Shown: positions 2,263-57,653 of the stretch, piece after piece
Layout: each line of letters begins with the position of its first letter
Numbering within the stretch: the stretch's first letter is position 1
Assembly (NCBI GenBank): GCA_001938485.1
Contig: MQRK01206634.1
Span: 5,761 to 66,854 of the forward strand
DNA: 61,094 nucleotides
Direction: 5' to 3'
DNA from: Girardia tigrina
Lineage: Eukaryota
The notes under the pieces: generated by a model
Databases searched by the model: none
Told to the model about the DNA's origin: nothing
The model's input: the letters and a program-made list of their open reading frames with translations, nothing else
Made by a program: the position numbers and the translations under genes

Positions 2263-2689
2263 AAGCTATCAATAATTTTAATTACTTTTTATTAATGCAT
2301 TCAATAGCCAAGATATGTATCAATCAAACAAAAAAACTAAGTAAAAAATGTTAATTCATGGTCAAATAAAAACTATTGGAATTTATATTAATCATGCCTA
2401 AAAACTTCATACTTGAAAACCTAATAATACGCTTATGGGGCTTAGAATGTTTTAAAAAAATTCATACCAAACGTTTGTAATTTTATTTAGTTGTAGAAAT
2501 TCACTATAGGCTGTTGTTACTATAGTTTTTTTTCGCAATAAATCTTTTTCAAAAATATTCAACAAATATAAAAAATTATATTAAATATCATATCTATCCG
2601 ACCGGATACGTACGTAATGTGTTTCAAAGTTAGAATATGTAGCCATATTTATAATATAATTATTGATCGAAATTATCCTGGGGTCAATA

Positions 2690-5600
2690 ATGTCTTCAAT
2701 TAATAAAACCTTGTTTTCTACAAAGCATGTGGTCAAAGAATATTTAATTGTACTAAAAGATGAATCTTTGAAAATATTTTTGGATGAAAAAACCATTCGT
2801 AGTATCGGTGTAAAAACCAATTGCTACGTACAGCTGACAAATAGAATTTTAAATAGAAAAGTAAATGCGTTTAAATTTATCAAATACGCGATCGTTCGTA
2901 TCACTGGACAAGATGAATGCGCCATTCGACAGTGTAATCGATTGTTGGAGCACCAATTTCCTCTTTATAGACACAGGAAAGATTATCATAAACGACCCGA
3001 ATGTTGCACTATTTATTCTCAGGAACTTGTTCCCGATAACGCATCTTTATGCTTCGCTTTTCAAAGAACTGGAGCCACTACATATCAATATGGAGATATT
3101 CTTATTAAGTCTCCTCATGAGCCGACGGTCGATCGACCAAATGAAACATGTCAATGGAGATCTGGTGATTCTGACTTGAAAAAAGGAATAACAGTCTCAA
3201 CGGGAAAACAGAACGAAAATTATCTTAATTGGTATTTTAGAAATTCGTTTCTACAACAAGAACCATACGACCCAAAAGTCACAATCAAATATGTTTATGA
3301 CGATTGCAAAAAAGAATCTTTAGGTTCCGATAAAACTAAAAATAAAAACGGTCGGCAATTGAAAAAGTACGGAGATTATCCAGCAAAACGTGTTGAATTT
3401 GTGGATTCGGTGATTGATGAACAGAATCTAACGGAATTCGAAACCCCTTTGTCTTTGTCATATATGTCGGAAAATCGAAAATTTATAACCGAAGAAAATG
3501 ATATTTCGAAAGAATCTTTCTCCGGAGATATTGGAGAAAAAACTGTAAAGGAATTTCAAAACATACGATCGAAATCCGAGGAAAAGAATTTCAAGCCTGA
3601 GGCGAAAATCCTTAACCAATCTCAGGATGTTGAAAACCGTCTAATTGAAGTTTCGTGTCAGAAAATATTGTCGAAATTAGGAGACGATTTTTTAAGAAAT
3701 GTTTCAGAAACCAGCAGCAATAAGAGTAGTCGAAACATAAATGATGGGGAGAAGAAATCGTTTAACTCGAATTTGTTTTATAGAAATATGATTCAACAAA
3801 TTTTCGATGAATTTCTAAATACAGCCATGAAAGAGAATTTTGAGAGAAGCGTTTCTAAAAACGATTGTACTAAAAAAATAGAAGAAATTTTCATCGAAGG
3901 AATGATAAATAATATTGTTGAAGATCTTCATCGAAAATATTTTACATCAAGTAAGCTCATACAGTCCGATCACGATAGCACAACATCTTCTGAAAACGCT
4001 AGTAAACTGAGATCATCATTGGCAAAGAAATATTCAAATGATGACGAAAATCCATATAAAGGAAAAGTAATAAATTTTGTCGAATCCTCTGGGAATACGA
4101 GCGAAGAAACTGGATTCGATTTAACAAATACTTTACCGAAACCCCCTTCAAAAGAGAACAAAACGAATATGTTACCATATAAATTCACATCAGATACCAC
4201 TTCACCAAGTAGTACTATGAAAGATGAAACTAAAGATTTGTTTCCAAAATCTTCTTATATAAGTGATTCAAGCAAACAGAGTGCTGGCGAAAAGTTGGTT
4301 GAAACAGAAATCTGCAATTTTTTATTTGATAATTGTATTGATAAGATACTTGATGAAAGGTATTCTCCTTCTAAAGTTTCGAAAGATTTTCCAGATGGAC
4401 GGAATTCAAATTTCCAGGAAAAATGTCTGGACAAAATCACTGATTACTTGCTTTCAGAATTAATCGATATGGAAAGTCAAAAAATGATAAATAATATTAA
4501 TCAAGAAAAAGAGAATCAATTGATGGACAAAATATGGCAAAAATTAGAAAATAATATTAGTAATGAAATTCTTGAAATGATTGAGGATTCGCAAATAAAA
4601 ATAAAGGAGTCGCTTGTTCCTAAACGAAATCCATCGGCAACTCGAATAGATTTAGAGAGCTTAAAAAGCGTCTCAAAAAGTGATGATAAGAATGGAAAAC
4701 CAATGACTAATCTCAAATTAGTAGAAACATTTTCTGTTCCTAAAAATTCAAAAGAATCAATCGGAAGTCCAACTAATGAAAATGTTCCACAAATACTTAC
4801 AGGTATGATTTCAAAATCAAGGAGTAAAACTGAAGAGTCTGTAAGAAGGGACTCATTAAAATCACAAAACAGTTCTAAACAAGCAAATGAATTGCTTGAT
4901 AGTTCCCTTGATATCAAAGGGTTTCGTAAGTTGAAAGATTCTGATTCCAAATCTACGTCCAAAACTGAAGAATCTTCAAGAAATACTTCTTCAAAATCAC
5001 AAAATGCTGCAAAAGAATTTATTAAAAGTTCATTTGATAACAAAGTTCCTGCGATTTCGAAAGATTTCCTTTCAAAATCCAGGAGTAAAACGGAAGAATC
5101 TCCTTCAAATGATTCTTCTAAGACTCGAAGTAGTTCTAAATATGCCAAAGAGTCAACTGCAACTCCATCAGATTTCCAAGTTCTACAGTCCACAAACGTA
5201 CCAGATTTTAAATCAGAAAGTAAGCTGGAGGAATCTCAAAAAAAGGATGTTTTAAAAGTTCAAAGTCCTCCGGATAAAGATTCTAATTTAATTGTTGTAA
5301 GCTCTGATGATTATTTAGTTCCAATGACGACCAATGACATAGAACTAAAATCTTTGAATGATATGAAAGTTAATTTTATTTTGAAAGATGAGACTGTAAA
5401 AAGCAAAACCAAAGTTGAAACTGAAAAAAAACATCCAAAACAATCGAAAAAAAAATCGAAAATAACAGAAGAAGAGTTTCAGAAGAAACTTGATGAAAAA
5501 CTAAAAGAAACTGTTCCCGGTAAAAGAAAATCCTTAGATGATAAATTTAAGCAAATAATTTATGATTCAAGCGGACTAATTAGAGAAAATATTGAAAACA

Positions 5601-7654
5601 CGACACCGGACGAATCAACATGGGAGTCTTTGAAACATAGAAGTAGTCAACAAAACAAAAACCAGTGTTTTGCTACAAATCCCGAGAGAACATCCGACGA
5701 GACGAAATTCTTCCAAGAAACAATTCAAAAACCGAGTAAAGATTCCCAAAATTCTCTCAGCCATCTCTCGTCCGTGATTTCCGATGGATATAATATGATG
5801 AATCATTACTTTTTTAAAGAAAAATTTAAAATTTCTAAATTAAAATCATTTCGAGAAAGTCTATCAACTAAAAGTGATAAAAACTCTAAAATAATTAATG
5901 TTGACACGGAAATAGGATATGAGAAATGGAAAACCTTTTTATCAAACCCCAATACATTCTTGGACTCTTCTGAGCCCACAAACTATCGAGTTAGCAATAA
6001 CTTTGAAGATTTACAAACGACTCAAATGTCCCAGTCAAACAATCTTTCTTCGTCGTTTGATCATTCTTCTTGTTGTTCTTCATGTCGTAAAAAGAATTCT
6101 CAGAATAAAAGTCAGTATAACGGCATTTTTCATCAGCGAAAGTCTTCTGAAATCGTTGAAATCGAAGACGTTGATATTCATGTTAATTTACCATCGGAAG
6201 AAGTTAAAGAAACTTCTAATCAATTGTTGAATGTAAATCAGTTTGATTTCGTAACATCGGATCAAATAAAAATAGATGACAGAAATAAATATTATAACAG
6301 AAATATGTATACAGAGTCTTTACATATAAGTGAGATTAAGGACAAGAAAACCGAAGTAGAAGTCCTTAAATTTACTTTGGACCTTCAGCAAGAGGTTAAA
6401 ATAGATAAAAGTCATAAACATCCTATTGATAAATATCTACCTACAAGGGAAAGTTTAGAAATCTTATTATATGACATAATGTGTAAAAATTATTGTATAC
6501 CATCAATAAGAACTCCTTTCGTGACTTTTGAGATATTTGGAGAACGGCATGTAATCTTTCCTCAAAATACGGCTAAAGAATTGATAAAATATTCGGAAGT
6601 TTTACATATTTCCAAAGTTCTCATTGACTCAAATTTTACTCTTAATATGAACACAAAACCAATCCCCAAAAGTAGGCTTAGCTTTTGCACTACCATTTCT
6701 CTGGAGAACGAATTAGACCCAACAGATATTTTGGAAAATCTTATCAAAAACGACTTTAAAACAAAAGCAATCCATCTACCTGTTATAAATGATTATATTA
6801 GTAGCTGTGCAACAGATTCCATCCAGATTTCTGATAACTCTTTCGACAAAGAGAATATTGGACTAATATTAGATAACTCCTTCAGTTTTTCGGAGAATCT
6901 TTGTGAATGTTCAACTAATTTAACGAAACGTTCTGACGACCAGTCGATAGATTCTGTATTCATATCATCTGATTGTAACAATTTGACTGAAAGTAACAAT
7001 AAAGACTTATATTATGATAGTTCTTCTCCGGAAAATCAGTTCAGCTTCTCCCAAAAAGACAATCATTGTTTACTAGAAACTCAAAATTCGCAAAGAAGTC
7101 TCTCAAAATCGCCATCAAATCCTAATTTACCGAAAATTAAAAAAACCCTTTTAAACATATCAAAAGAAGGAAGACTGAAGAAAACGAAACCCGTTGATAC
7201 AGAAGAAAAATACCATCCTAAAAAAAGTATTTTAGAAACTTATAAAAATGATTATTTTTCAGTGTTCGGTGATTCGGAAAATCAGTCCGTAAATCTAAAT
7301 GATATGCATGATCAAACTTTCCTTTCGGAAAGGTCTTCCAGTAAAACGTTTTCGAAAACTAATACAAAATCACGAAGCCGAACTTTGTCAGAGAAACTGA
7401 AACATAAAGCCATGAAAATTTTATCAAAATTGACCCCACTGGGAAAATGTTCCAGTACGGACAATATTACGGACACGGATGACTGTTTTACGTCCGTCAC
7501 GTCAGCGAACACGAAAATCGGTCCTTGTCCGGACGATCTATTCCCAACAAAAACTCTCGATTCTGAATTTTCGAAAAATTCTTTTTCTCGATATTTTAAT
7601 ATTTATAAACGAATGAAATTAAAACAGAATTCTTTCAATATTAAAACTTCATGA
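2690..7654 (+). CDS. Large single-exon S/K/E-rich protein of unknown function (about 1654 aa from the first ATG)
   Basis: Uninterrupted 5-kb ORF in very AT-rich DNA, ATG at 2690 and AATAAA about 80 nt after the stop. No transposase or RT motifs. Complex N-terminal ~220 aa followed by low-complexity sequence. Confidence 0.85.
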   Translation: MSSINKTLFSTKHVVKEYLIVLKDESLKIFLDEKTIRSIGVKTNCYVQLTNRILNRKVNAFKFIKYAIVRITGQDECAIRQCNRLLEHQFPLYRHRKDYHKRPECCTIYSQELVPDNASLCFAFQRTGATTYQYGDILIKSPHEPTVDRPNETCQWRSGDSDLKKGITVSTGKQNENYLNWYFRNSFLQQEPYDPKVTIKYVYDDCKKESLGSDKTKNKNGRQLKKYGDYPAKRVEFVDSVIDEQNLTEFETPLSLSYMSENRKFITEENDISKESFSGDIGEKTVKEFQNIRSKSEEKNFKPEAKILNQSQDVENRLIEVSCQKILSKLGDDFLRNVSETSSNKSSRNINDGEKKSFNSNLFYRNMIQQIFDEFLNTAMKENFERSVSKNDCTKKIEEIFIEGMINNIVEDLHRKYFTSSKLIQSDHDSTTSSENASKLRSSLAKKYSNDDENPYKGKVINFVESSGNTSEETGFDLTNTLPKPPSKENKTNMLPYKFTSDTTSPSSTMKDETKDLFPKSSYISDSSKQSAGEKLVETEICNFLFDNCIDKILDERYSPSKVSKDFPDGRNSNFQEKCLDKITDYLLSELIDMESQKMINNINQEKENQLMDKIWQKLENNISNEILEMIEDSQIKIKESLVPKRNPSATRIDLESLKSVSKSDDKNGKPMTNLKLVETFSVPKNSKESIGSPTNENVPQILTGMISKSRSKTEESVRRDSLKSQNSSKQANELLDSSLDIKGFRKLKDSDSKSTSKTEESSRNTSSKSQNAAKEFIKSSFDNKVPAISKDFLSKSRSKTEESPSNDSSKTRSSSKYAKESTATPSDFQVLQSTNVPDFKSESKLEESQKKDVLKVQSPPDKDSNLIVVSSDDYLVPMTTNDIELKSLNDMKVNFILKDETVKSKTKVETEKKHPKQSKKKSKITEEEFQKKLDEKLKETVPGKRKSLDDKFKQIIYDSSGLIRENIENTTPDESTWESLKHRSSQQNKNQCFATNPERTSDETKFFQETIQKPSKDSQNSLSHLSSVISDGYNMMNHYFFKEKFKISKLKSFRESLSTKSDKNSKIINVDTEIGYEKWKTFLSNPNTFLDSSEPTNYRVSNNFEDLQTTQMSQSNNLSSSFDHSSCCSSCRKKNSQNKSQYNGIFHQRKSSEIVEIEDVDIHVNLPSEEVKETSNQLLNVNQFDFVTSDQIKIDDRNKYYNRNMYTESLHISEIKDKKTEVEVLKFTLDLQQEVKIDKSHKHPIDKYLPTRESLEILLYDIMCKNYCIPSIRTPFVTFEIFGERHVIFPQNTAKELIKYSEVLHISKVLIDSNFTLNMNTKPIPKSRLSFCTTISLENELDPTDILENLIKNDFKTKAIHLPVINDYISSCATDSIQISDNSFDKENIGLILDNSFSFSENLCECSTNLTKRSDDQSIDSVFISSDCNNLTESNNKDLYYDSSSPENQFSFSQKDNHCLLETQNSQRSLSKSPSNPNLPKIKKTLLNISKEGRLKKTKPVDTEEKYHPKKSILETYKNDYFSVFGDSENQSVNLNDMHDQTFLSERSSSKTFSKTNTKSRSRTLSEKLKHKAMKILSKLTPLGKCSSTDNITDTDDCFTSVTSANTKIGPCPDDLFPTKTLDSEFSKNSFSRYFNIYKRMKLKQNSFNIKTS
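4811..5340 (+). repeat. Coding tandem repeat, about four units of 42-45 aa (SKSxSKTEES...)
   Basis: Units start at 4811, 4946, 5072 and 5207 (spacing 135/126/135 nt): SKSRSKTEES, SKSTSKTEES, SKSRSKTEES, FKSESKLEES. Confidence 0.8.
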
Positions 7655-10285: not shown

Positions 10286-10860
10286 GTAAACAGGTTTCTG
10301 TCATCTTTTAACAAAAAGTTATTCAAGTTTTTATTTTCTCAAGATCTTTATTAATACCTGATTATATACAACGAAAGAAAATAATAATAATCCAACAATT
10401 CAACGCCGAATAAAAGTATTTTTAGACAAACTTTACACAAAATATTACACAGAATCAGGCAAAGAATCATCATAGTTAAGTTCATTGCACAACTTATCAA
10501 TACCAATGTGCTCCAGAAAAAATTTAAACGTGCCAATTTCATTATTAAGGAGTCTTCTATTAAGACTTTGATTAAAAATCTGGATGATTTCGGGACCATT
10601 TTTCAAAATCTCTTTTAAAATCTTTTGCTCCTTCAGAGTATGGGAATTTTAAGAAAAGTTTCTTTGTGTTAGTCTCTTCCACAGAAGCATTAAGCTTGTT
10701 ATTGATAAAATTATTAGTTTTTAAATAGATTGATTCTACCGTAATTTTAATGATATTATGTAGATATTTTATATTATATCCATTATAACTAAGTCTGTTA
10801 TGTAGTGTATCGAGTTCTTCATCAAAATATTCGTAAGATGAAGTTAAGCTCCATACCATG

Positions 10861-12292
10861 TGATGCGAGAGCATGCGCAGCGCGGCTGCAGCACACTGTA
10901 ATCGGGGGACAGTGGTGGGGTCAGGGGAATAAAAAATTACTTTCTCACTTGTTCCATGAAAATTGTCTTATTTTTTATCAATTTTGAATGTCTGATCTTT
11001 GCTCAAGGAAAGCAATTGATCGATTTCACTCGACACTCCGATGTCCATTTTTGTAGTTCGATTATTGCTAAGACAGAGACAATCCGTATCAATGACAATC
11101 GCTCCGTAAAGAAGCCTCAGTAGAATCTCCAGTTGTAGCATTGATCTATTAGTCAATAGAAACTGTGCAACGAGCGTAGAACAAGAACTGACTGTTTGAA
11201 TGCTCTCTGTCTCGAGCTGACCCGGAGGAAATCTGCATTTGATCTCGCGATGATCAATGATCTCTGGAACGTGACACGTGATCCGCTCTTCCGCGCTCGA
11301 TGGCGGTCGAGAGCGACTCACACATTTTCCCAAAATCGGCAATCATTGAAACACATCTCTATTCCATCCAAATAAACCAAATCATTGGCGAAATCGATAT
11401 CAAACTTTCGTTGCAACCATTCCAGGATATCGCGTCTTAAAATCACATTTTGCTTGGAATTAGAGCTAATCGGAATGACATTATACAAATCGTGATATTG
11501 CAAATGCTTGTAAAATCCATAAACTAAACGGGAAACAATACTGTCCAAATCGGACAATTCATTGCCAATAATTAACCATTTCGGTTTATCGGAATTCAAA
11601 AACGTTTTTCGTGAGGAAATGAAATCATTAAATGAAATAATTGTAATCATATCATTTGAATTTTTAAAACTAATAAAAAAAATTATTGAAAAAATCTTTT
11701 CATTCGACAAAAATTCATATTTTCACAAGAAAAAATAAAAAAAAGTTCGATCGCTCTCGACTCGATATCGATTGGACTTTGAATTTGAATTAGAGGTCAA
11801 ATTCGATTTCTCTGAGAGAAATTTTTATATCGATTAATTAATTTTCTATCAATTAAAATTGGGGGAAATTTTTCGACACGAAATTTTTATCGATTCGGTT
11901 TATTTGAACAATTAAATCATTTTCACTATTGATCGATCGCAATTATCAAATGAGATGCGTACAATATAAATTATCTTGATTGATTTTTAAACAAAAACGG
12001 ATTTATTTTATCAGGAAAATAATTTCACAAAATAGCAATCAACGATTTCACTAAGTTTTAATTCAATTAATTCTGCTTTGATGCGATTTCACACTATCGA
12101 ATTGATTGCCTCAAATTGGTGTCAATAACACATTGATTCAATTGATGCAGTTAAACAAATTAATTAATTATTAAAATTACAATTTATTATTGGCGATCAA
12201 TCAATTAAATGTCGACAAAAATTTGATTTTATTTTTTCAAATAATTTTTCGTCGACTTTCAACAAAAAAATATTTTTTTAACTCTCAAAACC
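10861..12292. mobile_element. Solo-LTR-like insertion A carrying a PRUNE fragment
   Basis: 5-bp TSD CCATG (10856-10860 and 12293-12297). Ends TGATGCGAGAG...CTCTCAAAACC form an imperfect inverted repeat; the last base is C rather than A. It cleanly interrupts the Penelope reading frame. Confidence 0.85.
10941..11650 (-). pseudogene. PRUNE: Exopolyphosphatase PRUNE/PPX1 (DHH domain), 3'-truncated pseudogene
   Basis: IIGNELSDLDSIVS, LRRDI, V*VALDRH (degenerate DHH motif with a stop), frameshift, then EIIDHR, VSSCSTLV, LLYGAIVIDT, TTKMD. DHHA2 half absent; no introns seen. Confidence 0.88.
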
Positions 12293-13299
12293 CCATGTGT
12301 ATTAATCCTTTGATCATATAAATACTTTAAATTGGGTCACAAAAAAAAGCTGTATAAACCAGTGTCCGATGGATTTCTATAGACCTTTGTTATAAATTTA
12401 TCCTGTTGTTTTTCTATCAATACATCCAGAAAAGATATTTTATTATTATCTTCAATTTCACAAGGGAACTTAATATTTAGATGAATAGTATTTATGAAAT
12501 TTTAAAAAACCTTTGACATCTTCCTTATTCTGAAAAATAAGAAAAGTGTCATTAACATATTTAGTATAAAAAGATGGTAATACACCTGAATAGTTATTAA
12601 ACTTTTTCTCAAAGTTTTGCAAGAAAATTGAGGCCATTAATGGTGCAAATGGAGAACCCATGGCAACTCCATCAATCTAAGTTTACGAATCATCATTGAA
12701 TAAAAAAGGAACATTTTTCATACTAAATTCAAGCAACGCCTTACGGGCTGTAGTACTCATTGATTTTGATTTGTCTTCAGTCAACGCGTCCCAAAGGTTG
12801 ATAAAAATTTAGTCTACCAGTGTTCAAGATGGAAAAAAAACTATATTAACAATTAATAAAAGAAAAATTCAAAATTAAATTAAAATTCATTAAATTCAAG
12901 ATTCATAAAAAACATAAAAAATTCAAGCTTAAAGAATTTGTTTTACTATAAAAATTAAAAAATTAACAAAACGCAAAAATTCCAATTACGAAACCAATCT
13001 GTTTAGTGGTGGAATATGGTGGATCACTTTGATACTACATTGTTTATAAATAAACGTTTATCGAAAATTCTCGTTCTCATTAAATATCACAGACAAAAGA
13101 CTGTCAGTCTTTTGATGATCAAATAAATCGACTGTTACGTCGATTAAAATTACATCCGGGACGAATCCGATTGAACATCAAATTTTATCGTGTAATTGGT
13201 TGTATGATTTAGGTGCCGGTCATCCGGTCACTAACTAACGCGTCAAACTTGATCAAGTCAACAGTATTGCGAACGCTGTTACACATAAAAACCCGTCCC

Positions 13300-16970: not shown

Positions 16971-19475
16971 TATAAGCACTGGAACATAATATTAAGACTT
17001 ATGTAAATTGAAGCGTCAATGAAACTAAGCAAGCGGAGTTTTCATTTAAACTTAGATAAAAAAATAAAATTGACATTTTTTTCAAAATAAAAAATTAAGA
17101 GTATGAAATTAATTTTCTTAAAATTATTAGTTAAATAAAATTAGTTTGTTATTCAAATAAAACTTATTTTTATTAAAATATACGAAATAAATAAATATTT
17201 TTGTCTTCAAAGCAATTATTTATTGTTTTAATTTATTCACGTATTGCAGATGCATTATATCAAAACTTGTACCAAACTGTGTATCTCATTAATATCTGTT
17301 TCTTATTGTTTCAATCATTTATTAAATATTATATTTTACTGAAAATAATAATCTATTTTACATCAGGAAATTGAGTAATTATATAAAAGATGAAGAAAAC
17401 TTTCTTTAATGAGAATTCTGAGATTAAATTTTAATAGTAGAGAACAAATTAATTGTTTTTATACTTTTTAAAATTAATTAAATAAGAATTTATAGTTAAA
17501 ATATATTAAATATATTTTTCAGTAGTCATTTGATGTAACGCTTATAACGCTTGTGGAAAATTACTTTTTCCTAATAATTTATTTTTTTTAATTTTTATTA
17601 ATTTTTTTAAAAAATATATTAAATACTGGTTTTCAATTATAAATTAAAATTAAAAATGTGTCCCAAAAATAATTCTGATCATGTAAAACATTTAAATATT
17701 CACCGATTCGATTGCAATTAGACAACAGCATAACATTTTTTTATAAAGATTAATCTTCAATAACGAGGCAAAATTCTATCACTCGAAGTAGGATAACGAA
17801 TAGGACTGTCTCAACTGAAGTGACAGCAACCATAAATTAATGTCACGCAATGTATACCATTCGAGCTACGTTTAATATGACTTTCCAGAAGAGGGTTTAA
17901 AAGTTATATTATAATAAAAGTGAACTTTGTATCAAATAATTTATGCCCTAAATTCACTTTAAGTATTGTTAGAAATTTTGAGAGCTCACATACATTTTTA
18001 AATTTTAAAACTTTTTTCAAAATCTTTAAAAATATTTCATAAAAATAAAATATAGCAGAAGAAATTTTAAAGTAAAAAATAATTTTTAAATTTTTCATCG
18101 ATTTCATGTTCAGAATTTATTTTTACATGAGTAATAACTTCTAAAAATTGTTTCTAAAATTTAAAGGGTAAAAAACTGATGCATAAATACACAGATTGCG
18201 ATCTGGGCATTTTTCGAGAAAAGAAGGTTACGAAATGAGTAAAAGCAAGGATCGAAAGTTTATGGAAAGATCGAAAGCAGTAATAATTTAGTGACTGAGT
18301 GAACAAAATGTTTATGTTACTGCTAGAAACTAACATATTACAAATTTAAAGATGTAACAATTTAATTAAATATAAAAAAACTTTTTAAAACACTCAGATT
18401 AATTTTGATGAGTTTGCTGTAAAACACATATAATTATTATACATCGACTCCTTCAGATTTTGAGTTTATTTTTCTTACTGATTATCGATTTTATTAAAGC
18501 TTTTCTGTTTCCAAAATCATTTTTTGATTAATTAATCCATTAATCGGAGAATGTTTTGATAAATTATAAAAATGTAATTAAGAATGAAAAGGTTTGTGAA
18601 ATTTCAGCTCTATCTGATAATGAAAAGTGGGGTAAATGATGGCTTAAAGATTTTTACCGCACAGATAAAGTGAGTAAATAAATATAAAGCATGGTGAAAA
18701 GAAATTAATTTATTTTGTTATGGTTTACGATGTTCTCTAGAACCGAATATTTGACAAAATGATATTTTTATGTATTGAATTTCATTAGTCCTTTCTCAAT
18801 AGTTCAACAATTTTCTTGACGACAAGAGTCGAGATCACAGTATATAATTTTTAGGTTACTTAAGATTTGAATTTTGAAAGTCATGAAACGTGAAATTTGT
18901 ATTTCTTTACGGAATAAATGGCGTGCGAGCAGCATCATGGAGTGCTTTGATATACATGAATCAACATTTAATACTTTAAATTTTATATCTGAAAATCGAT
19001 TTTCATTTGTAAATTCTAGTTTTCACATTTACAAATCGCTTCCATTTTTGAAGGAAGCTACTTACCTGTATAATTGTCTCTGTAAAACCTCATCTAATTA
19101 CTAATAGTCAGAATTTTATTGCGCATTTGATGGTACAGACTTAAAAGGTGAACAAGTATTTCCAATGACAAAATTATTTTATTTTATTTAATTTGAATAT
19201 TAATTAATGGGGCTTAGTGTGTTATTAAAAATTATTCACAAAACTGCTTCTCATAATAAAAATCACAGCCTGCTATAAAACAGAAAACTCATCCTTTGAA
19301 ATAGAAGAGATTCTAATTTAAGAATATAACAAATTTCTAAATTCTTAAAATTTGACTACCGTTAATTTTGATTTTATCAAATTAGCGTTCACAAAACTCA
19401 ATAATATATTTATCTGTATACACTTAACGTATTCTGTTTCGAAGAAACTTCAGTATGACTTTCAATGTTCAAATA

Positions 19476-19945
19476 CGAGGGGCGTTCCGAAAGTAAGTGG
19501 AAATACTTATATGCGGGTGTGTGCATCTTACAGAGGGACAGATGGCGTGGTGGCGTGATGTACTTACCAGCCAATAGAAATCGAGCAAAAGTGGCATGGT
19601 CCATGCAACATGTGAGCAGCATAGAGGAAACTGTCATAGGCAGTGTTTTCATTTTTGTTTAACACATGGAAGACGCAGTACGTTCTCAGCGTGCCATCAT
19701 CTTTTTCCTTTGGAAAGAGGATACTCCAGTGTCTGACACTGTGCGCCGCTTATCAAATGTGTTTCAAGGAAGAGCCCTGCAAAAGTCTGCCGTCTACAAT
19801 TGAGTGCATCAATTCGAAAATGGACGTGAATCCTTGGACGACGAGGACATGAGTGGACGTCCAGCAACGACGAGCACGGTAGAAAATGTGGAAAAAGTGT
19901 CGGAGACCATCAATTTTTTTCCACTTACTTTCGGAACGCCCCTCA
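19476..19945 (+). mobile_element. Internally deleted mariner element
   Basis: TA-flanked TIRs CGAGGGGCGTTCCGAAAGTAAGTGGAAA; N-terminal HTH SQRAIIFFLWKE..AVYN*VHQFENGRESLDDEDMSGRP. Confidence 0.92.
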
Positions 19946-21394
19946 TAGAATACAAATAAAAATATATCATTTTTTTCTTCGTTTGAGTCAACGTATTTTT
20001 GATCAACTTCAAAGACATTATAAAAATGATTACATCAAAATTAACAGTAGTTAAATTACATTGTTCAAATAATAAAAATTTATTTCATGATTAATTTACA
20101 TAAAATATATCTTATAGTAAAAATAAAAATATAAAATATTCATAAAACCATAAATAATTTTCAAAAATTTTCAAAAATGAAGACCAATATAATAATTTTA
20201 TTTTGGTTTTAATTATTAATTATCTCTTTTTCTTTCAAAAAAATTAAAAATTTATAAACCACCAAGATCCAACAATATCTAACTATTATTAGAGACATTT
20301 CTCCGTTGTTTTGTTTGATTTGAAACAAAAATTTTTTATATCACACAATAAATATATTTTTATCTATTATAGAGTTGTTATTAATTATGAATCTATATAA
20401 TAATTACTATTATAAATTCGGTTTTTAAGAGTTATAAATTCATTAACAAAAAATGATAAATTGTATAAAAACTGTTAAATTGTATAAAGCTAATTATAGG
20501 GGGTAAAGAAAACAATCCATCAATTTATATCGCTATACAATACAAGGAAAGCCGCTTATAGTGGCCACATTCGTCCAGCCACTATAAGTTCTGTGTTCAA
20601 ATTTTGCAAATTACTGAGAGTTGCATATGAAGCTTTATTAATCAGGACCCACAATCATAAAATAAATATTCAAGCAACAATCTCAACTAAATTATTAAAA
20701 GTATTTAATTAGAAATGCGATTACATAATTTGATTACATAATCCGTGTTTCTATATATCCGTTGTTTTGATCATTATTTGTTTTGTCTGATGGTGACGGG
20801 TGATCCGTCGAAATTAATCACGTTTTTGAAAAATAAAAATTTTTAATGGTGTTTAAATTTTAATTAAACATTTAAATTTTAAAAGTTAAAAAACATAAAT
20901 ACAGAAATTTATTAAATAAACTGATCTTAATGAGTTTTAAATTCAGTCAACCTCTTCAATTTTTAATTATTACCCTAAATTAACAAAAGAAATAAAAAAT
21001 CTAATAATTGAAAGGTAGATTTTCAAAAATTAATTAATATTAAAAGTAATTAAACTTTAATAAAAATAATTAATCTAAGTATATAACATTTTTTTTATTA
21101 AGTAAAAAATAAATAGGCTAATAAATTACAACAAAATTTTAATAATAAATTTATTTTAAAGTATCAAACTTGTTTTAAATAATATTTTTTTCAACTTTTT
21201 TTTGTGTTTCTGAATTGCATAAAGTCAGTTTTTATTCATCTACAAGAAGCCTTACTAAAAAAATGAAATCTCAAAAATTTATCGTTATTTTTGCTTAAAG
21301 TTAATAAAAATTGTCAAATCTTTAATTAATCTTAGAAATATATTTAAAGGTAACACAATTCCATGGTTTTACTGTACTCAGATCTTTTTAGCGA

Positions 21395-26127: not shown

Positions 26128-26850
26128 TGATGCGAGAACGTGCGTAGCCGGACTGTAGCACCCTGTAGTCGTGGGGCGGACGAGGGGTCGTGGAAAAATT
26201 TATTTTAATTTACTCGAAATTCTCTTGATTTTCTGATTTAATTCTTTTATCTCCGACTCGCCGCCGTGAATGGATTTCTTTCGATCGTGGACTTTCGACA
26301 TTATAATTATAAATATCAAATTAATCACGATTGGACAACTTTTCCAACCGGAAGCGGCCAACTAACCAATGTAACTTGAATGAAACACAAAACCACCCAT
26401 CATTACAAACAAACTACTCGATATTCTGTCTTTATTTCGAAACAAAATAATCAAAACCGTTATGAAATTATGAATCAATAAAATTGCAGAAATCCATTTT
26501 TCTTTTTTGCCAATCGAATAGTAAAAAATACGCAGTGAATTTCGTAAAATTCTCGAATGATGGTCAGTCAGTCTGAAATCAGACAAATTCATATTTACCG
26601 CTGAAATGATTTGGATTCAAAATAATTCCATTTCAATGGCGACTTATAATTTCAACGAAAAACAAAACAACGAATTGCACCAAAAATAATTTTATTAATC
26701 GAGTTAACACTCACAAAAAGAAAATAACAAATGGCTCCTCAAATTCAAAATTCAAAAACGCGCTGACATTAAACAAATGAATCGCATAAAAAAATTCTAA
26801 ATTTACTAATAAAATAAATATTTTTTTCTTTTTTTTTAATTCCTCAAACA
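26128..26850. mobile_element. Solo-LTR-like insertion C carrying TMEM18
   Basis: Perfect 5-bp TSD GAAAC (26123-26127 and 26851-26855); ends TGATGCGAGAA...TTCCTCAAACA; first 62 nt match insertion A at 47 positions without gaps. Confidence 0.92.
26200..26592 (-). pseudogene. TMEM18: Transmembrane protein 18 pseudogene (near full length, intronless)
   Basis: One frame: FYYSIGKKEKWISAILLIH..LFRNK..LFVMM..FVFHSSYIG*LAASGWKS / CPIVINLIFII..basic tail. One premature TAG, and the conserved QYFDxxGxFISxxFS block is deleted. Confidence 0.8.
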
Positions 26851-27794
26851 GAAACTATAATAGATTGATATCAAAGATAGAAAGTGTGCCCTATTTCACT
26901 TATTCAGTGAATTTGGTTAAGATTATGATAAGGGTTAGGAGGAGCGGTGCAATTCAGTCCCTCTGAGAATCATTCAAACTTAATTTAAAAATTACAGGTA
27001 TACAGGGGTGTTTCAAGGTACATGAAGATCACTTGGATTAATTAGGAGATTATTCTAGTCATAAGAAACAAATAGACAAATATGTGTTCAAATCTTTTAA
27101 TTTCTTTAAAATTAATTTTCCGCAATTATTTTGTTATGAGTTTAAACAAGAATTTTACAAATCATGTAAATAAGAAGAAGAAAACCACATATAAATTCTC
27201 CTTTACGAGTTCCGTATATTTGTCCATTTATTGTTCGAATTAAAAAAGTCTGTACATAGTGAATAAAATCGAAATACAGTTGCTAACTCGGCAAAATAAG
27301 AACAATTAAAAAATTGGCCGGGGGTCATTGACTGGCTTGCCTAATAAAAATCGTACCCCAGGCGTTGAGTTGATGAACAATTTTAACAAATTATAACCAT
27401 GTAAAAGAGATCTTAATTAAAATATGTTATTTTTTGGTATACGAACAAATTTCTACAGAAAAAAAGAATTTAATACTTTCCTTTATATTTTTTAATGTCT
27501 CACAAAAATCGGTTTTGCTAAGGTAAACAAATCCATTTTCAAGTTAGAAATAAGATTTAAAATTTATTTATTAAAATATTTCAACATAAAAAGTGGAATT
27601 AGGATCATTTATTCGAATTTCTCAATCTTGAAAGTTTCAAAATTAAGTAATCAATAACAACGATGTTATAAGGGACGATATTTTAATGTTTCATATTTGT
27701 TCCAACCGTAAACACGTCCGTAAAATACTGAAATATAGGTAAAATGTCATTCTATTATCATAATTTGTGAGGAATATTTTCGTTTAATGATATA

Positions 27795-28731
27795 CACCCT
27801 TGTGCAAATCAATCTGAACACTGTTCAGTTTTTTCTCATTTGTTTAATTGAATGTATATTGGTACCAATACTTTATTTAAATGTTCAGAATAAATATTCT
27901 ATATAAGTACTTGTTATGTTTAATACACTCAATGGTTTAATTGATCTATTTTTTGAATTCTAAATATTTGTTTGTATTTTTGCTTATTTTAGGTTAAATT
28001 GTGTTTAGGTATATAAAGTTTTAGATTTACCATTGATAACTTGTAGTAAGGTTATCACAATATCTAAGCATACAAGTAGGAGTCAATAACAGATTTCTTA
28101 ACAATGTGCTATCTGTTTGTCCACAGAACAGATGGAGAGCCACTTTCTCCTGCTCACATTCAACAGTCAGTAAAATTTCCGGCAAAGCAAATTTTTTGAC
28201 GTTGCTTCTCATTTTCTGGTTACGTATCATTAGTTCCTGTCCAGAAGATGATGAACAGTCCAACATATATCAAAGTTTTCATGATACATTGATTCCAGAG
28301 TTGTTGAGAATACAAATGCAAAATCCAGTTTCTCAGGAAGACCGTGTCCCATGCCATTCTTCTAAGAGGGTGAGTAAATCTTTTGCTGACAATAGAGTTG
28401 ATAGTTTAGATTGGCGCGAAAATTCACATTACATCAACCTAATAGACAATTTATTGTCAATTTCTAAAACATGGATGAGAAAAATGGATTGCACCACCTT
28501 AGAGAAAGTTTCAAAAGCAGTTTTTTATGTCTGGCACAATGATCCAAAAATCAAAGAATGTCAAAAATTTGTGAAATCAATGCCAAAGCGCATCAAATTA
28601 CTCTTAAAAGCAAGAGAGGCACTCATTAAATATTAACATTTACTCAAAGTTTTTATTTTGTTACTACATTACAAATATACTTGATTTTTTCATGAAATAT
28701 GATAGTGTTCAGATTTATTTGCACAAAAGTG
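27795..28731 (+). mobile_element. Tc1 (DD34E) element, internally deleted
   Basis: TA-flanked TIRs CACCCTTGTGCAAATCAATCTGAACACT / AGTGTTCAGATTTATTTGCACAAAAGTG; QEDRVPCHSSK..LDWRENSHYINLIDNL..VKSMPKRI. Confidence 0.9.
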
Positions 28732-29136
28732 TATATAAATGTAACAAGTGTGAATCCTTGTACATTGAAGAGATAAATCATCCCTTCTGTATTAGAATTG
28801 AAGAACACATCTAATCAAATAGAAAAAGCTCAATTTTGGATCACATTTTGAAATGTCCTGGAACTCAGTAACTTTGATCACAACTATGAAAGGACAATTA
28901 CTTACCTAGTTTAAATGTGCAAAGTGATTCTTCCAATCATATTAGAGTATTTTGATGTAACACGATGTGACTTAATGGTCATCATACTAAATAAACAACA
29001 AATTTTTATTTAAATACAGAACTGAAGATGCCACAAAAGTTGCGAAACATGAAATGTGCGTTTTAAAAAGTATTTAGGATTTTGCTTCTCCAACTCAGAT
29101 GGTAAGTAGATATTCATTAGATCAAATTATCATGTA

Positions 29137-30512
29137 TTAGGTGTATAACTTAGTTTTTTGGATTTTCTAAGAGATGGTGTAACCTTTGTAATAAGCATTA
29201 TTTTACAGTCGTACGTACAGATTTTTAAAGTGCTGAAATCGAGGCATTAAAATTAAGTAGGTCATTGACCTTAAATGCATCATAAACATATTTTTAATCA
29301 CGTTTTAGCATGACAACTTTCATACCAACAAAACCGCATTTGCGGCAAGCACTTCTGTTTTGCTTTAATCAAAAGAAAAAAGCTGCAGACAGTTTTCGGT
29401 TTCTTGAAGAAACTTATGGTCAACATGCACCAACTCAACAGACTTGCGAGAACTGGTATAAACGTTTCAAAAGTGGAGATTTCAACGCAAGTGACAAAGA
29501 GCGTTCCGGTCAACCAAAAAGATTCGAAGATGAAGATTTGGAATCATTACTGAAGGAAGATTCTACTCAATTAGAGAAAGAGCTTGCAAAACAGTTAAAT
29601 GTTACTCAAGCAGCCATAAGTAAACGTCTACATGCTATGAAAATGATTCAANNNNNNNNNNNNNNNNNNNNNNNNNNNNNNNNNNNNNNNNNNNNNNNNN
29701 NCCATAAGTAAACGTCTACATGCTATGAAAATGATTCAAAAAGAAGGAAAATGGATACCACATGAATTGAATCAAGCCAACATTGAAAGTCGATTACTGA
29801 TATTCAATTCATTGCTTACAGGACAATGAAGATGATCGTTTTTGCATAATATTGTGACTGGAGATGAAAAATGGATTTATTATGTTAACTCTAAACGCAA
29901 GAAATCGTGGGTTCATCCCGGCGAACCGTCCACGTCAACAGTAAAAAGAAACATTCATGAAAGAAAGGTTATGTTGTGCATTTGGTGGGATCAGAAAGGT
30001 GTACTGTACTATGAGCTGCTGAATTCGAATGAAACTGTTAATGCAGAACGTTACCAACAACATTTAATGAAATTGAACGATGCATTGAAGGAAAAACGTC
30101 CTATCCCAGCCAACAAACAGCGCACAGTGATTTTGCTCCATGACAATGCTCGGCCACATGTCGCAAAGCAAGTAAAAAACACGTTGGAAGCACTTAAATG
30201 GGAAATTCTACCGCATGCTGCCTATTCACCAGATTGTGCCGATCAATGTTCCGATCATCTGTTCCGATCAATGCAAAGCGCTCTTCGGGACCAGTACTTC
30301 AGAAATCAGGAACATATAAAAAATGACTGGAACAATGGATCGCATCAAAAGACCAAAACTTTTTTTTCGATGGAATTCATAATTTGCCTGAAAGATGGTC
30401 GAAAGTCCTAATTAACGATGGAAAATATTTTGATTAGAATAAAACTTATTATGTCATATAAATAAACTTGTCTGTTCTGCAAAAAAGTCCAAAAACTAAG
30501 TTATACACCTAA
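29137..30512 (+). mobile_element. Mariner (DD34D, Mos1-like) element, full length, with disrupted transposase (29310-30437)
   Basis: TA-flanked TIRs TTAGGTGTATAACTTAGTTTTT; WYKRFKSG, RSGQP, WIPHEL, VTGDEKW, LHDNARPH, YSPD. Contains stops and a 50-N gap. Confidence 0.95.
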
Positions 30513-31108
30513 TATATTTATATATATTATATTTATTGTATTATATATTATTATGTATATTTGTATATATATGATACATATTCATATTATTATAAAATAT
30601 TAATGTTTATTTTTTATTATTTTAGTCTTTAAAGTTCTTTTCATAATTTAAAATTCAAAAGTAAAAATTATTATATTTTTAAGTTAAAAATTTTTAAATG
30701 TTATGCTATGTGTTTTGGTAAATTTTCTTAAACATAAATGTTGAATATGCGAACTTTTTAGAAAAGTTGAAAATGTGTTTTGTATGTATTATGTTAAAAA
30801 ATGTTTGAATGCAAAAAATAATAATAAATAATTTTTAGTTTCTGTTTTTCTTACACTTAAACAATTTTTCATACAATACATAAAAAACAAATTTTTAACT
30901 TTTCAAACATATTCACGCATTAAACATTAAAATAACTACATGAAAATATTTACAAAAAAATACAAAAACACAATAAGTCAAAATAAGGATAATATTTATT
31001 TATTAATAAATAATTAGGCTTATTAAATGTTACTACATGTTATTTGTTACTAAATGTTATTACATGTTTTTTTTGATTATGCATATTAAGATTTTTAATA
31101 ATAGATAC

Positions 31109-34552: not shown

Positions 34553-34684
34553 GATACAATAATTATTATAGTTGAGTTTACAAAGAATGGTTAATATCTA
34601 TATAAAAATATATATAAAATAATATATATAAAAATAAATATAAAAATAAGAAAATAAAAAAATAATGACAAATTTTTATTAAAA

Positions 34685-34965
34685 TCAAGAACGCCATTAA
34701 AATCAAATTTTATTGTCGCAATATATTTCGGTGGATTTCCCACCATCTTCAGGCTGAATTTAACAACAATTCCGCTGTCTTATATATAGCAAATTGATGA
34801 TTATACAAACATCTTGCGTAATAACTAATTAAATATTTTCAACAAATTGGAAGAGACTTTTTTGGACATTAATGGACGGATTGGGAGAGATTTACTTGTG
34901 AAGCATTATTGATTAAATCACTTGATTAAAAATTGATTAAAATTTGATTTTCATGGCGTTCTTGA
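34685..34965. mobile_element. Penelope-type terminal remnant bounded by 27-bp inverted repeats
   Basis: TCAAGAACGCCATTAAAATCAAATTTT / AAAATTTGATTTTCATGGCGTTCTTGA; contains a hammerhead core. Confidence 0.65.
34714..34758 (-). ncRNA. Minimal hammerhead ribozyme motif
   Basis: CUGAAGA-U-GGUGG-GAAAU-CCACC-GAAA-UAUAUU with palindromic stem III (AUAUAU). Confidence 0.65.
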
Positions 34966-37900
34966 ATATATATTAAAATATATAAAATAATATCTATATA
35001 AAAACTATTAATTTCTATATAAAATCGAATATTTTCTATTTAGAAACGAATACTGGTGTGATATACAAATCACCGGAAAATTTTCTATTAACAATAAAAT
35101 ATATTTAAAATTCTATTTTATACATTTATCCAGCTACAATTCGATATTCTCAAAACCGACATTTAATAATTTATACTTATATTTTATTATAAAAAAGCAA
35201 ATTTATTATTATAATTCAATCACACATCAATAAAAAAACAAGTAAATTAATTAACATAAACAAAGCCCAAGTTATTTGAGTTATATGTTGTCTTCGAGAG
35301 AGATAGAAAAAAATGAAACGAAATCACATCTGCATATAAATTATGGTAAATTAAAAGCAAAAGACACAGAAATTGACAAGGCGAATTAAAAGTTTATATT
35401 ATTTAAATATAAAAAGACAAAAAAATACGCAGATAATCAAACTTAATCCTCGAGTGAGTTATAAAAACTGAGAAACTACAAACGAGTTCCTTACGAAAAA
35501 AAATTTGAATTTTTTTGTTAATTTAATGCAATTAAATCGACAAAAGAAAATTTTGTTTCAGCGAAACAGCGACGTGCTTTTACTGCCAACTGTAAGAAGA
35601 TCAAAAGTCTTTAGACGAACTGAGATTATTGATAAATTATCGAGACTGCTTAATTTGTTTTAATTATTGAATTTAATGCGCTTAAAATTAATTTTCATAG
35701 TAAATTTCATTGAAAAAATTTTCAATCATTTTTATCAAGAAAAAAAATATTTCTGATAAATTGTTGATAATTTTCAATAAGAAAAAAGAAAATTTCATGA
35801 CAAAATTTGTTTTAATCGACAAATTATATTTATATTTTCTTTTCAGCACTCTCAATTATTCATATTGCTCATGAGAGAGGAAAAATAATTATTAAATTAA
35901 ATAAATTTATTGTTTAATTAGAATTTTCAAACAATTTCGAAAAAAGTTTCGAATTAAAATCAAAAATGTCATTTAAATTTTCAAAATTTATCTCGGTGGT
36001 ATTTCCGCCATTAATTGTTTTGTATTAAATATTTAAATGGTGATTTTGTAGTCAAATTATTCATTAACTAATGCTATACTGAGATGCTCGCTACCGGAAC
36101 GAGCTGCAGTAACCAGGACCTCTTAATCGTGCGGGAAGTTGCTGGCCGGAGGAGTCGTCCGACCGTAGACGCTCATAACAAGGTTGGACCCACTGACCAC
36201 CGGTCGGCTTGAGAGTTCCCGTTTGGGGTCGCCATTTGCGTGGCGCATGATCCCATCTCGCATGACGATTGGTTCGATCGGTCCATCAGCTTGTACCCCA
36301 ATGGTTCACTCAACGAGTTCAAGTGAATTATCCGGCAAGACCGGTTTCATCCGTATAGGGAATGAAAATGTCGATATAAGATTCAAAAATTGAATTCGTT
36401 AAAAAACATTTATTAATAGAGACATTACACCAGATTCAAAATTGTGTCATAAAAACAGTTTAATAGAAGAAACAATTTTTTAATTGTTTTTTTTACATTA
36501 TTTTCACAGAAACACCGCATTTACTATTAACAAAGTGAAAGAGCGACTCATTTGCACATAAAGTGATTTAATCAATAATTTCTCATTTAAAGCTATTTCC
36601 AATAATTCTTAAAACTACTGCACAATATTTTAAAATCAGTTATTTCAACATATTTCCATCAATATTATTACCATTACTCAATCGATTGTGGTCCTAAAAG
36701 TGGTTTTAAACATTGTTTTTAATTTTTCATATTTATTCTATATAAAAAATTAAAATTATTTTTAAACTGCCAAAAATTTAGTATAAAATATGTTTCAATT
36801 TTCGTCTAATTAAACATAATTTTTTTAAAGTATTTAACTAAAAAAAATAATTGAAAAGAAAATGTTGAAAATATAGTTTAAATGTCCTATATTTTTCATC
36901 TAGAAAATTTTTTTTCGTAAACCCAATAATTACACCGACCAAAAAATTCATTAAGAGACTTTCAGTGAAAAAGAAAAAAATGGAAAAGAAATTTAACGAG
37001 TAAATTGAGACACAAATTTCCCGTAGGGATTAAATAGACGAAAAACGGACTTTGTAAAGTATAACAGACATGTGTCAAGAAATATAAAGAAAATAAGTTA
37101 TAATAACGCAGATAATATTTTCTTTAGATTTTATATTTTTTTCTTTTGCATAAAAATATTATTTGTGTCGAAATTAATTATCTAAAAATGATCGGGATAT
37201 TTCGTTTAGACATTATCAGACTTTTTAGGTCACTCTTAGTAAGGACTTCTTACACCGAAGGGGATGCTTATATGACTTGATATTTTTTTATACATTTTCT
37301 TTTATCCTTCATTGAGTTTTAACAAGTTAATACGAGGATCAAAATAATGGAATCAAAACATTATATTAATTGTTTGAAAGAATTGAGAATTTCAGATAAT
37401 CGAAGTGTTAAAAAAGAATAAATAGTACTAAACTTTCAATGAGATCTGATTTGAGGCCATAAACTTATTTTACACATTGCTTAATCTTTTGATTCTTTTA
37501 TTGTTTTAAAATATCATTAAAGTTTCTAAACTAAAGTTGCCCTGAAGACCAGGCAATAGCATCAATGCACTCAGCAATTTGAATGGGAGCTCGGCCTGGA
37601 TATATTTATTTGAGCGGATCATATTTTTTTGATTAAATTTGAGAATTTGAATTTTTGAGACAAAATAAATTCTGAGAAGTATTTATATTAAATTATACCT
37701 TTTTCAAACTCTCTTCACAACAAAAAAATAATTAAAACAATATTATAAAATTTATCAGTAATCGAGAAATCGTTCAAAATTTAAGAAGTTGAGGAATCAG
37801 TGTTCGTACAAAATATATTTTAAAAAATGAGATAACATTAAATTGTTTCTCGAGCCAGTAACTCGCTTTTATTGGCTAGCCAATCAGAGCGTGTTATTTC

Positions 37901-55976: not shown

Positions 55977-56948
55977 TGTGGGATTGATAATAATTATTGT
56001 TTTTTTTTCATTTTTGAAATTTAATTAATTAAGATCCAATAATCTATTAGTAAATCATTTAAATAAATTTACTAAAATCAGAGTGTAAATAGATCTGATT
56101 ATCAGATTAAGAATATCTCAAAATTCGTTTTCTTTGAGATTTAGGTCCATACATTTTATTTTCTACAGATAAATATATAGCCCGAGAATATCTAATTCTT
56201 AAGATTTTGAAACTCTAAGATAAACATACAATTTTGGATTACATTTTAACAATTAATTTTTAATTATAAAGAAAACTGATTAGGTTAAATTTAAAATTAA
56301 AAACTTCCAATTGATTTTAATTCTCATTTAAAATCTTACATTAATTGTACATTAATTAGTAAGGATGATGGGATGTGATTTATGAGGAATAAGAATAGGG
56401 GAAATGTTTCAGTTGGATCGAAAACTGTTCATGATGTGACCGACATTGGAAAGTGTATTTCCGTACATTTTAATCAATAAAAAAATTGTTAATTGTAGAA
56501 TTTATTATAGGAAACTTACAAATTATTTTGTAATAAATTTATCATTGATTGTAGTTAATTTTTAACATTATTTTATTAGTTTTTATTATCCATAGATAAA
56601 TAAAAAAAATTAATAGATTAGATATATTAAATAGCTTCTTTGCTAGGTTTACCATTGTATAGGTGTTACTTTGATTAGGAACGATGAAGAAATGGGTAAA
56701 AAAAGATTCCTTTTTGATGCTTTCTTTACTTAAGATAAAGGAGAATTTTATAATTCTTGGTAGAAAATACAAAACAACAATTATACAGTAATTGACTTTA
56801 GCTTCTTTGAGTTGAATGCTGCTAAAAAGTTTAGAGAAACTTTTGTATGACCTTTTATTCTTTATTTTTGATGTATTTTAATTTTGGATTTTTCCGTAGT
56901 AAGAGGCAAATAATTTATTATTAATTATTTTTAACCACATTTTTATTA

Positions 56949-57653
56949 CAGGGTATCGCATTTCTATATTACAACCCTTGCATATATTTCTATATTACAC
57001 ACAAAAATTGAAAATATTTTTTTATTTACCCCAAATACCATGGTAAGAAAAGAAAGGAAAACCCTTACAGAGGAAAAGAAGGATTTAATACTTCGATTGG
57101 ATATTCAGCCAACAAAGTTAAAGTATACAGGTAGATTCCTGCAAACAGAGGCACAAACTTCAGCTGCCTCTGTGTTATCTCTTATGAAGGACTAGTCGCG
57201 TATGAAAAGGGTCGGGGTGCTTATAACTCTGGGTTTTTTAATAAATTGGTCGAGAGTCACATCGCGGCCTACTTTAGGTCTAACCCGGAGAAGATTCTAA
57301 TCATGGACAACGCGAGGTTTCACCATGCGCGAATAACTATCGCCACGTTAGAGGAATTAGGTATTACGTATATGTACCCTCCTCCCTACTCTCCTCAACT
57401 GAATCCGATCGAGGAGTTTTTTTCGATGATGAAAGCCCGTTTTAATGGTATACGTAACCCCGCTAATACTGTCGAAGTTGATATTGACTCTGTTCTTATT
57501 AGTGATTTTAGAGCTCCGTGTCTAAGATTTTATGATAAAATGCTCACATGGGTTGAGAAAGCAAGGCAGAGACTAGATTTTATATAATAAACGAATTTTT
57601 ATAATTTTTTATTTTTTATTTTTTTGTGTGTAATATAGAAATGCAATACCCTA
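56949..57653 (+). mobile_element. Internally deleted IS630/Tc1-like (DD34E) element
   Basis: TA-flanked TIRs CAGGGTATCGCATTTCTATATTACA; NFSCL, IMDNARFHH, PPYSPQLNPIEEFFS. Confidence 0.92.

Follow-up and report, generated by a model that had tools for sequence, protein, structure and literature searches.

An inserted unit in a Penelope-like element

The window, a stretch of 61,094 nucleotides from a Girardia tigrina contig (MQRK01206634.1), contains a decayed Penelope-like element interrupted by a unit of 1432 bp, which is presented with its modules in Table 1. The insert begins with TG and terminates with CC, where most copies end in CA. Its insertion between two copies of CCATG is confirmed. 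The sequence-only reading had located the insert at 10861-12292 with a 5-bp duplication of CCATG, and had proposed that it arrived as a single piece in the Penelope reverse-transcriptase gene. The positions proved exact, and the single-piece arrival is borne out by CCATG on both sides and by empty copies that cross the site.

Among the 19 Penelope loci fetched, 14 reach the insertion site. In agreement with the same reading, 13 of these 14 are contiguous when aligned across the site, and one carries a small local rearrangement. Joined copies encode mostly IKGLIHRVWS at this position, and the HMV form is found in L059 and L060. One uninterrupted relative (L068) encodes both RVT_1 and GIY-YIG domains, i.e. 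the reverse transcriptase plus endonuclease expected of a Penelope-like element. The joined site is also present in contigs of runs X1, X2, and X11; none of the listed run contigs spans the whole 1432-bp insert.

The insert has no poly(A) tail. A LINE-made retrocopy, denied already in the sequence-only reading, is rejected because of this absence and because the duplication is fixed at 5 bp rather than variable. A 7-bp duplication, CCATGTG, was considered and dismissed as well, since the duplication is 5 bp across copies and the additional TG is the element's own start, matching by coincidence.

Table 1. Positions of the inserted unit, its modules and associated features in the window
Position	Strand	Feature	Similarity or remark
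10594..10860	-	Penelope-like element, decayed, part downstream of the insertion site	76-93% to uninterrupted copies
10856..10860	.	Left 5-bp target-site duplication, CCATG	
10861..12292	-	Complete insert of 1432 bp, likely BEL/Pao solo LTR	sense strand is -
10861..10948	-	GC-rich shared 3' end, likely U5	begins at splice-donor-like GTGAGA (10948-10943)
10949..10995	-	About 45 nt between PRUNE homology and shared end	absent from host exon; unmatched in loci of other families
10996..11104	-	Start (~110 nt) of a later host PRUNE exon, within which homology ends	81-82% to G000:C216696:4676-4791, from its AG acceptor
11105..11500	-	One whole host PRUNE exon, intronless joins on both sides	84% to L162:2377-2776
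11501..11650	-	N-terminal PRUNE coding part, ATG at 11650-11648; no host exon found	
11651..11771	-	Probable PRUNE 5' UTR	match to run X4 contig
11772..12292	-	AT-rich 5' part, which may be U3, host upstream DNA or earlier cargo	ends in short superfamily motif
12293..12297	.	Right 5-bp target-site duplication, CCATG	
12293..12803	-	Penelope-like element, decayed, reverse-transcriptase part upstream of the insertion site	
26128..26850	-	Second superfamily unit with TMEM18 cargo, 723 bp, TG...CA	duplication GAAAC

Elsewhere in the window, an intronless open frame of 1664 codons without a Pfam match lies on the + strand (2660-7654). Pairs of inverted repeats of 30-35 nt, probably MITEs, were observed at 27790-28736, 29132-30517, 19474-19947, 34680-34970, and 56941-57661.

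A multi-copy family with 5-bp target duplications

Used as a query, the insert yielded 43 matches in the 40 scored of 420 candidates, most of them near full length and with 84-90% identity. The span of a single host PRUNE exon (exon 2) was found in 151 loci, which represent at least 87 distinct copies of a TG...CA element, so the private, one-off capture of PRUNE implied by the sequence-only reading is not upheld. The assembly consists of 255,254 contigs, and the loci read are a part of the family.

PRUNE-type copies start with TGAT(G/A)C(A/G)AGAG and end with CACAAAACA. Ends were paired by taking the best-matching right end within 0.6-5.5 kb, with one truncated locus excluded. An exact 5-bp duplication accompanies 21 of the 34 pairs obtained and a duplication with one mismatch eight more; no exact duplication of 4, 6, 7 or 8 bp was found among them. 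Target duplications of the PRUNE family lean to G-T-A/T-A-C. Terminal inverted repeats are absent, the two ends sharing only TG and a few bases. Interpretation as a Helitron or Helentron was rejected on the basis of the 5-bp duplications. Two contigs with two copies each (L099 and L100) were inspected as possible full elements and turned out to be duplicated or tandem segments.

Origin and decay of the PRUNE cargo

Homology between the element and host PRUNE extends from the acceptor to the donor of one exon, continues directly into the next and stops within it. The former exon (L162:2377-2776) is bounded by AG and GT in the host and has an intact LVDHH motif. A contig of 1745 nt from run X4 matches 11167-11771 and departs from the element at 10996 into the host exon; it is regarded as a probable PRUNE transcript, the run type being guessed as RNA. 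The loose end of this contig matches the genome exactly at one place, the exon with the AG acceptor. Two host introns are missing from the element, which indicates that the cargo came from spliced mRNA.

Alignment to host PRUNE had been suggested as a way to distinguish skipped introns from similarity extending into the promoter; the skipped introns were found, and promoter similarity is unsupported. Likewise, the ~640 bp upstream of PRUNE did arrive as part of the insert, but their origin from a promoter finds no support, and ~120 bp of them match the probable transcript contig. The rest (11772-12292, ~520 bp) has only one match outside PRUNE loci, 73 nt long (L212). Searches of the genome for the first exon and promoter of host PRUNE did not find them, nor was its C-terminal half found in searches with DHHA2 and P0004. 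Identity to database PRUNEs is 29-35% because the host gene is divergent, and the search for a longer protein with the window's PRUNE fragment had P0001 as its sole result.

The cargo covers the DHH domain typical of PRUNE/PPX1 exopolyphosphatases (DHH family). In copy L022 the frame is open over the whole of this domain, with similarity to the exopolyphosphatase PDB 2qb6 (E 1e-5) and to DHH (E 6e-5). Unlike these enzymes, the cargo lacks the DHHA2 domain and its LVDHH motif is damaged, with one codon lost in nearly all copies and DRH present in 43 of 87. The copy at 10861-12292 shows a frameshift near 11290 and two stops, one at 11320-11318 and the other at 10970-10968. The dN/dS of PRUNE copies is 0.69-0.72, compared with 0.76 +/- 0.09 in simulated neutral sequences, and stop-free copies make up 25 of 87, compared with 24-37% expected. 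Selection on the cargo was therefore rejected, as the dN/dS below 1 disappears against the neutral simulation. Features of a functional PRUNE (an intact DHH motif, DHHA2 and purifying selection) are thus not found in the cargo; PRUNE copies decay neutrally, and the PRUNE piece is cargo and no working enzyme. A check for expression listed no RNA data set as a source of the sequence.

A public protein (P0151) contains an open PRUNE frame of 283 aa. It comes from a copy of this element in another assembly, and its frame exits the element end in the Gag frame.

Units with the same end carry other host sequences

The left-end 20-mer of the insert has 97 exact matches in the genome (control 0). Among 40 new loci that share this end, two are of PRUNE type, one is a mosaic, and 37 have other interiors. 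For 10 of the 40, with lengths of 622 to 4436 bp, a matching right end is accompanied by an exact 5-bp duplication. The GC-rich terminal segment of 80-90 nt is common to units with TMEM18, ACLY, LIM, and sulfotransferase cargo, all in one orientation. Matches to host families are directed accordingly: 7 of the 101 frames that point to the shared end have one, and 0 of the 106 that point away from it. The families are LIM (twice), ACLY, TMEM18 (twice), Sulfotransfer_4, and Pol_alpha_B_N.

ACLY cargo is 88-92% identical to the host sequence, lacks its 52-nt GT...AG intron, and loses homology within an exon. TMEM18 cargo matches one host exon (90%) and ends at the exon end; of 96 matches of the TMEM18 family, one lies within the window (26128-26850). 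Horizontal transfer of the ATCGAT-rich cargo was rejected, as host exons of PRUNE, ACLY, and TMEM18 are all present in the same genome. The tail showed no relevant Rfam match to a known RNA or a tRNA-derived head. Of 40 units, 25 have a splice-donor-like GT(A/G)A(A/G) at a distance of 65-125 nt from the LTR end, compared with 3-10 in controls; another count gave 27 of 50.

Several units deserve separate mention. L189 is a mosaic of 980 bp in which a PRUNE start, a spliced ACLY start, and a third piece (also in L186) precede the shared end, with the duplication GACCC. An apparently complete open Sulfotransfer_4 frame (E 4e-63) is located in a shared-end unit at L214:3000-3872, which is a candidate full-length retrocopy. 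In L286 (G000:C61832, about 3355-3633), an ACLY piece with its intron kept adjoins a reverse-transcriptase fragment, indicating that DNA-level or pre-mRNA capture also occurs here. In the window itself, the region from 15447 to about 16300 contains a third and more distant end of the shared type (TGGTGTTAGAGC...), followed by ATCGAT-rich sequence with short open frames on the - strand. A right end that matches it and has a clean duplication was not found.

Probable relation to BEL/Pao LTRs

The shared end is followed by TGG in 48 matches (control 3). In 4 of 30 loci read, it continues into TTTC and a TGGTAGCAGAGCG-like site, and the junction composed of CA, TTTC, and the TGGTAGCAGAGCG type has 129 matches (control 0), in which the primer binding site (PBS) stands behind related ends and not behind the PRUNE unit. 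Sequences preceding the PBS resemble the end of the PRUNE unit, best in L324, L353, and L354 (z 8.5-9.9 relative to shuffles); L353 has an end close to the PRUNE type and ubiquitin downstream.

Frames 3' of the PBS junction encode ubiquitin and a DUF1759 Gag. DUF1759 was detected in L342, L352, L364, L378, and L384, and RVT_1 in L384, whose reverse transcriptase has PF05380 (the Pao domain) in 117 of its 120 listed relatives. RNase H and integrase had no match in the open frames scanned. One full element was found (L378), with the duplication ATGAC, an LTR starting with TGTTTGAG, a PBS, ubiquitin-Gag, a purine tract, and a second LTR; its U5 is of a more distant type than the end of the PRUNE unit, and it is the element in which a polypurine tract was seen before the 3' LTR.

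The genome contains tRNA-like 3' halves, with a CAT loop, to which the PBS is complementary, and we tentatively take the primer type to be initiator Met. The loci concerned were not called as tRNA by ARAGORN or Rfam, and the PBS does not match the Arg or Gly primer expected from the ICTV profile. Folding of U5 with the PBS in L375 is not above shuffles (z -1.23). Repeated tRNA-like 3' halves joined to unrelated upstream sequence, some of them in tandem and with no tRNA gene call, were noted in L365-L370.

The shared 3' end and the 5' motif of the units recur in LTRs of PBS-bearing and full elements; the PRUNE interior was not found in such an LTR, none of the 196 PRUNE-matching loci, many of them redundant, having a PRUNE-bearing LTR with a PBS. 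No flanking sequence abutting an end is common to independent PRUNE sites (67 left and 52 right). The shared GC-rich end is most likely the U5 of an LTR. Since related ends open through a PBS into ubiquitin-Gag, and one full element exists, the similarity of the ends makes a BEL/Pao solo LTR that encloses the 5' end of a host mRNA the most likely identity of the PRUNE unit.

Reading frame from the cargo into ubiquitin-Gag

PBS-bearing LTRs also contain pieces of host genes, namely Vac14, PRS7_OB, DCB, histone, and ODR4. In 18 of 46 distinct LTRs, the Gag frame can be traced back into the LTR for at least 60 codons without a stop; the other frames are open to this extent in 5 of 92 cases (p 1.7e-6). 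The bias is weaker when the last 120 nt are skipped, with 16/46 vs 12/92 (p 0.006) for 40 codons and 18/46 vs 22/92 (p 0.07) for 30 codons. L342 has a single frame of 677 codons, which starts with an ATG inside the LTR and covers Vac14, the PBS, ubiquitin, and DUF1759. For PRUNE, the most frequent spacing is 99 nt (19 of 64), which corresponds to the Gag frame; the three frames hold 26, 18, and 20 copies, homopolymer indels spreading the rest. TMEM18 spacing shows no frame preference.

Gly-Gly is retained in 13 of 15 ubiquitin ends matched. Two public, intact BEL/Pao polyproteins, P0168 and P0170, have a long N-terminal extension and ubiquitin before the DUF1759 Gag. The peptide IGSRA, present in both, would correspond to in-frame translation of this same PBS. 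The N-terminal stretch of P0170, with no Pfam hit, presumably resembles a SENP8/Ulp1-type protease. Because the frame of the cargo often continues into ubiquitin-Gag, the cargo likely provides the start codon and ubiquitin a cleavage point, the latter suggested by the kept Gly-Gly.

Proposed origin of the unit and alternative explanations

We are fairly confident that the unit is a decayed, multi-copy TG...CA element, most likely a BEL/Pao solo LTR whose LTR took up the spliced 5' part of PRUNE from mRNA. In the scheme proposed here, strand transfer onto mRNA, amplification of the full element, formation of the solo LTR, use of the cargo ATG to start translation, and release of the downstream protein at ubiquitin are steps that we infer. 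The short first cDNA, on the U5 side, would jump during reverse transcription onto a co-packaged PRUNE mRNA at a point inside an exon. It would be extended to the 5' end of this mRNA and then return to an element RNA, so that the host piece would come to lie within both LTRs. The PRUNE-bearing element would amplify, one copy would integrate into Penelope at the site of 10861-12292, and recombination between LTRs would leave the solo unit. In active elements, the host piece may give the leader and a start codon that shares the frame of ubiquitin-Gag. Deubiquitinases of the host may cut after Gly-Gly, so almost any host N-terminus would be tolerable.

The strand-transfer model does not account for the donor-like motif at the junction of cargo and tail (25/40) or for the 45-nt linker. 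Enrichment of this motif near the LTR end in both counts, together with the TMEM18 match that terminates at an exon end, speaks for a variant with the same BEL/Pao LTR origin in which cargo is gained or used by splicing, through exon trapping or 5' transduction. The donor-like site would then join host exons to the element, and the in-frame link to Gag would be a by-product. We consider this variant improbable, because PRUNE and ACLY homology both end within an exon, mosaics such as L189 fit serial template switches, and in the best-kept copies the Gag frame crosses the LTR end without interruption.

Every PRUNE unit read stands alone, has its own duplication, and lacks an attached internal region, as would be expected of a non-autonomous Pack-type DNA transposon that captured cDNA and moved by cut-and-paste. 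TG...CA ends and a 5-bp duplication are also known from Ginger2/TDD-like elements. Such a transposon is even less probable, given terminal inverted repeats that do not extend beyond a few bases, a PBS and Gag directly behind related ends, and the strict one-way orientation of the cargo combined with intron loss. Finally, a single capture event at the DNA level, in which the 5' half of PRUNE and its promoter were moved into Penelope, would suit the single-piece arrival without poly(A) and the upstream 520 bp without an assigned source, but is contradicted by the at least 87 distinct copies and the two missing introns and is hardly credible.

Comparison with known systems

Under the reading as a BEL/Pao LTR with captured mRNA, several known systems are comparable. 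General hallmarks of LTRs were taken from excerpts of PMC8220671. The ICTV profile of BEL/Pao (Belpaoviridae) gives an LTR length of 0.2-1.2 kb and a PBS for tRNA Arg or Gly (PMC8742986). As in this group, elements described here have TG...CA LTRs, a PBS after the 5' LTR, and a purine tract before the 3' LTR (PMC8742986), as well as a DUF1759 Gag and a reverse transcriptase whose relatives carry Peptidase_A17 (PMC8742986; excerpts of PMC3118150). In contrast to the profile, the probable LTR at the present locus is 1432 bp long and filled with host mRNA pieces. Ubiquitin before Gag and a frame that begins within the LTR differ from BEL/Pao too; the word ubiquitin does not occur in PMC3118150. 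In all but primer type and LTR length, the related full elements agree with BEL/Pao.

LTR-mediated retrocopies of animals, as presented in excerpts of Tan et al. 2016 (PMC5131818), consist of spliced partial host mRNAs acquired via template switching, form multi-gene mosaics, are re-amplified, and have no poly(A); they replace a part of the internal ORFs between two LTRs. The intronless partial host mRNAs of PRUNE and ACLY are similar to them. Unlike in those excerpts, cargo is here contained within one TG...CA unit, upstream of the PBS, persists where the LTR is solo, and often shares the frame of Gag. The defining layout of LTR-mediated retroposition therefore does not apply, because the cargo is inside the LTR.

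In pestivirus polyproteins, captured ubiquitin lets cellular hydrolases free the downstream protein with a defined N-terminus, as has been shown experimentally (excerpts of PMC5381556). Unlike in these RNA viruses, cleavage in the present elements is suggested by the kept Gly-Gly only. Burro elements of planarians are giant Gypsy elements with host-like domains in the polyprotein, in AT-rich invertebrate genomes (excerpts of PMC6431247). The elements described here are likewise LTR elements with host-like domains in an AT-rich invertebrate genome, but Burro domains are fixed and internal, whereas here exchangeable host 5' ends reside in the LTR. Host-mRNA cargo in LTRs is not described in the accessible parts of PMC6431247 and PMC11410931, and the literature searched (outside subscription journals, Repbase, and supplements) describes neither BEL/Pao LTRs that contain host cargo nor ubiquitin-Gag in these elements.

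Implications

The copy at 10861-12292 is a dead relic of an unusual system. In a wider reading, on which we are evenly divided, the LTR of this BEL/Pao lineage would be an exchangeable slot for host mRNA 5' ends. These would provide the leader and start codon, be translated through the PBS and be clipped at the captured ubiquitin, so that the element could freely change its 5' identity and scatter gene fronts through the genome as solo LTRs. A single mechanism would account for many broken fronts of housekeeping genes across the genome, which otherwise resemble gene expansions or pseudogenes. If the in-frame ubiquitin-Gag design is true, a retrotransposon borrows host translation starts. More speculatively, it perhaps also dodges or redirects small-RNA silencing, since every LTR additionally gives rise to RNA that matches a host gene. 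Each LTR family would be a record of the mRNAs packaged with the element.
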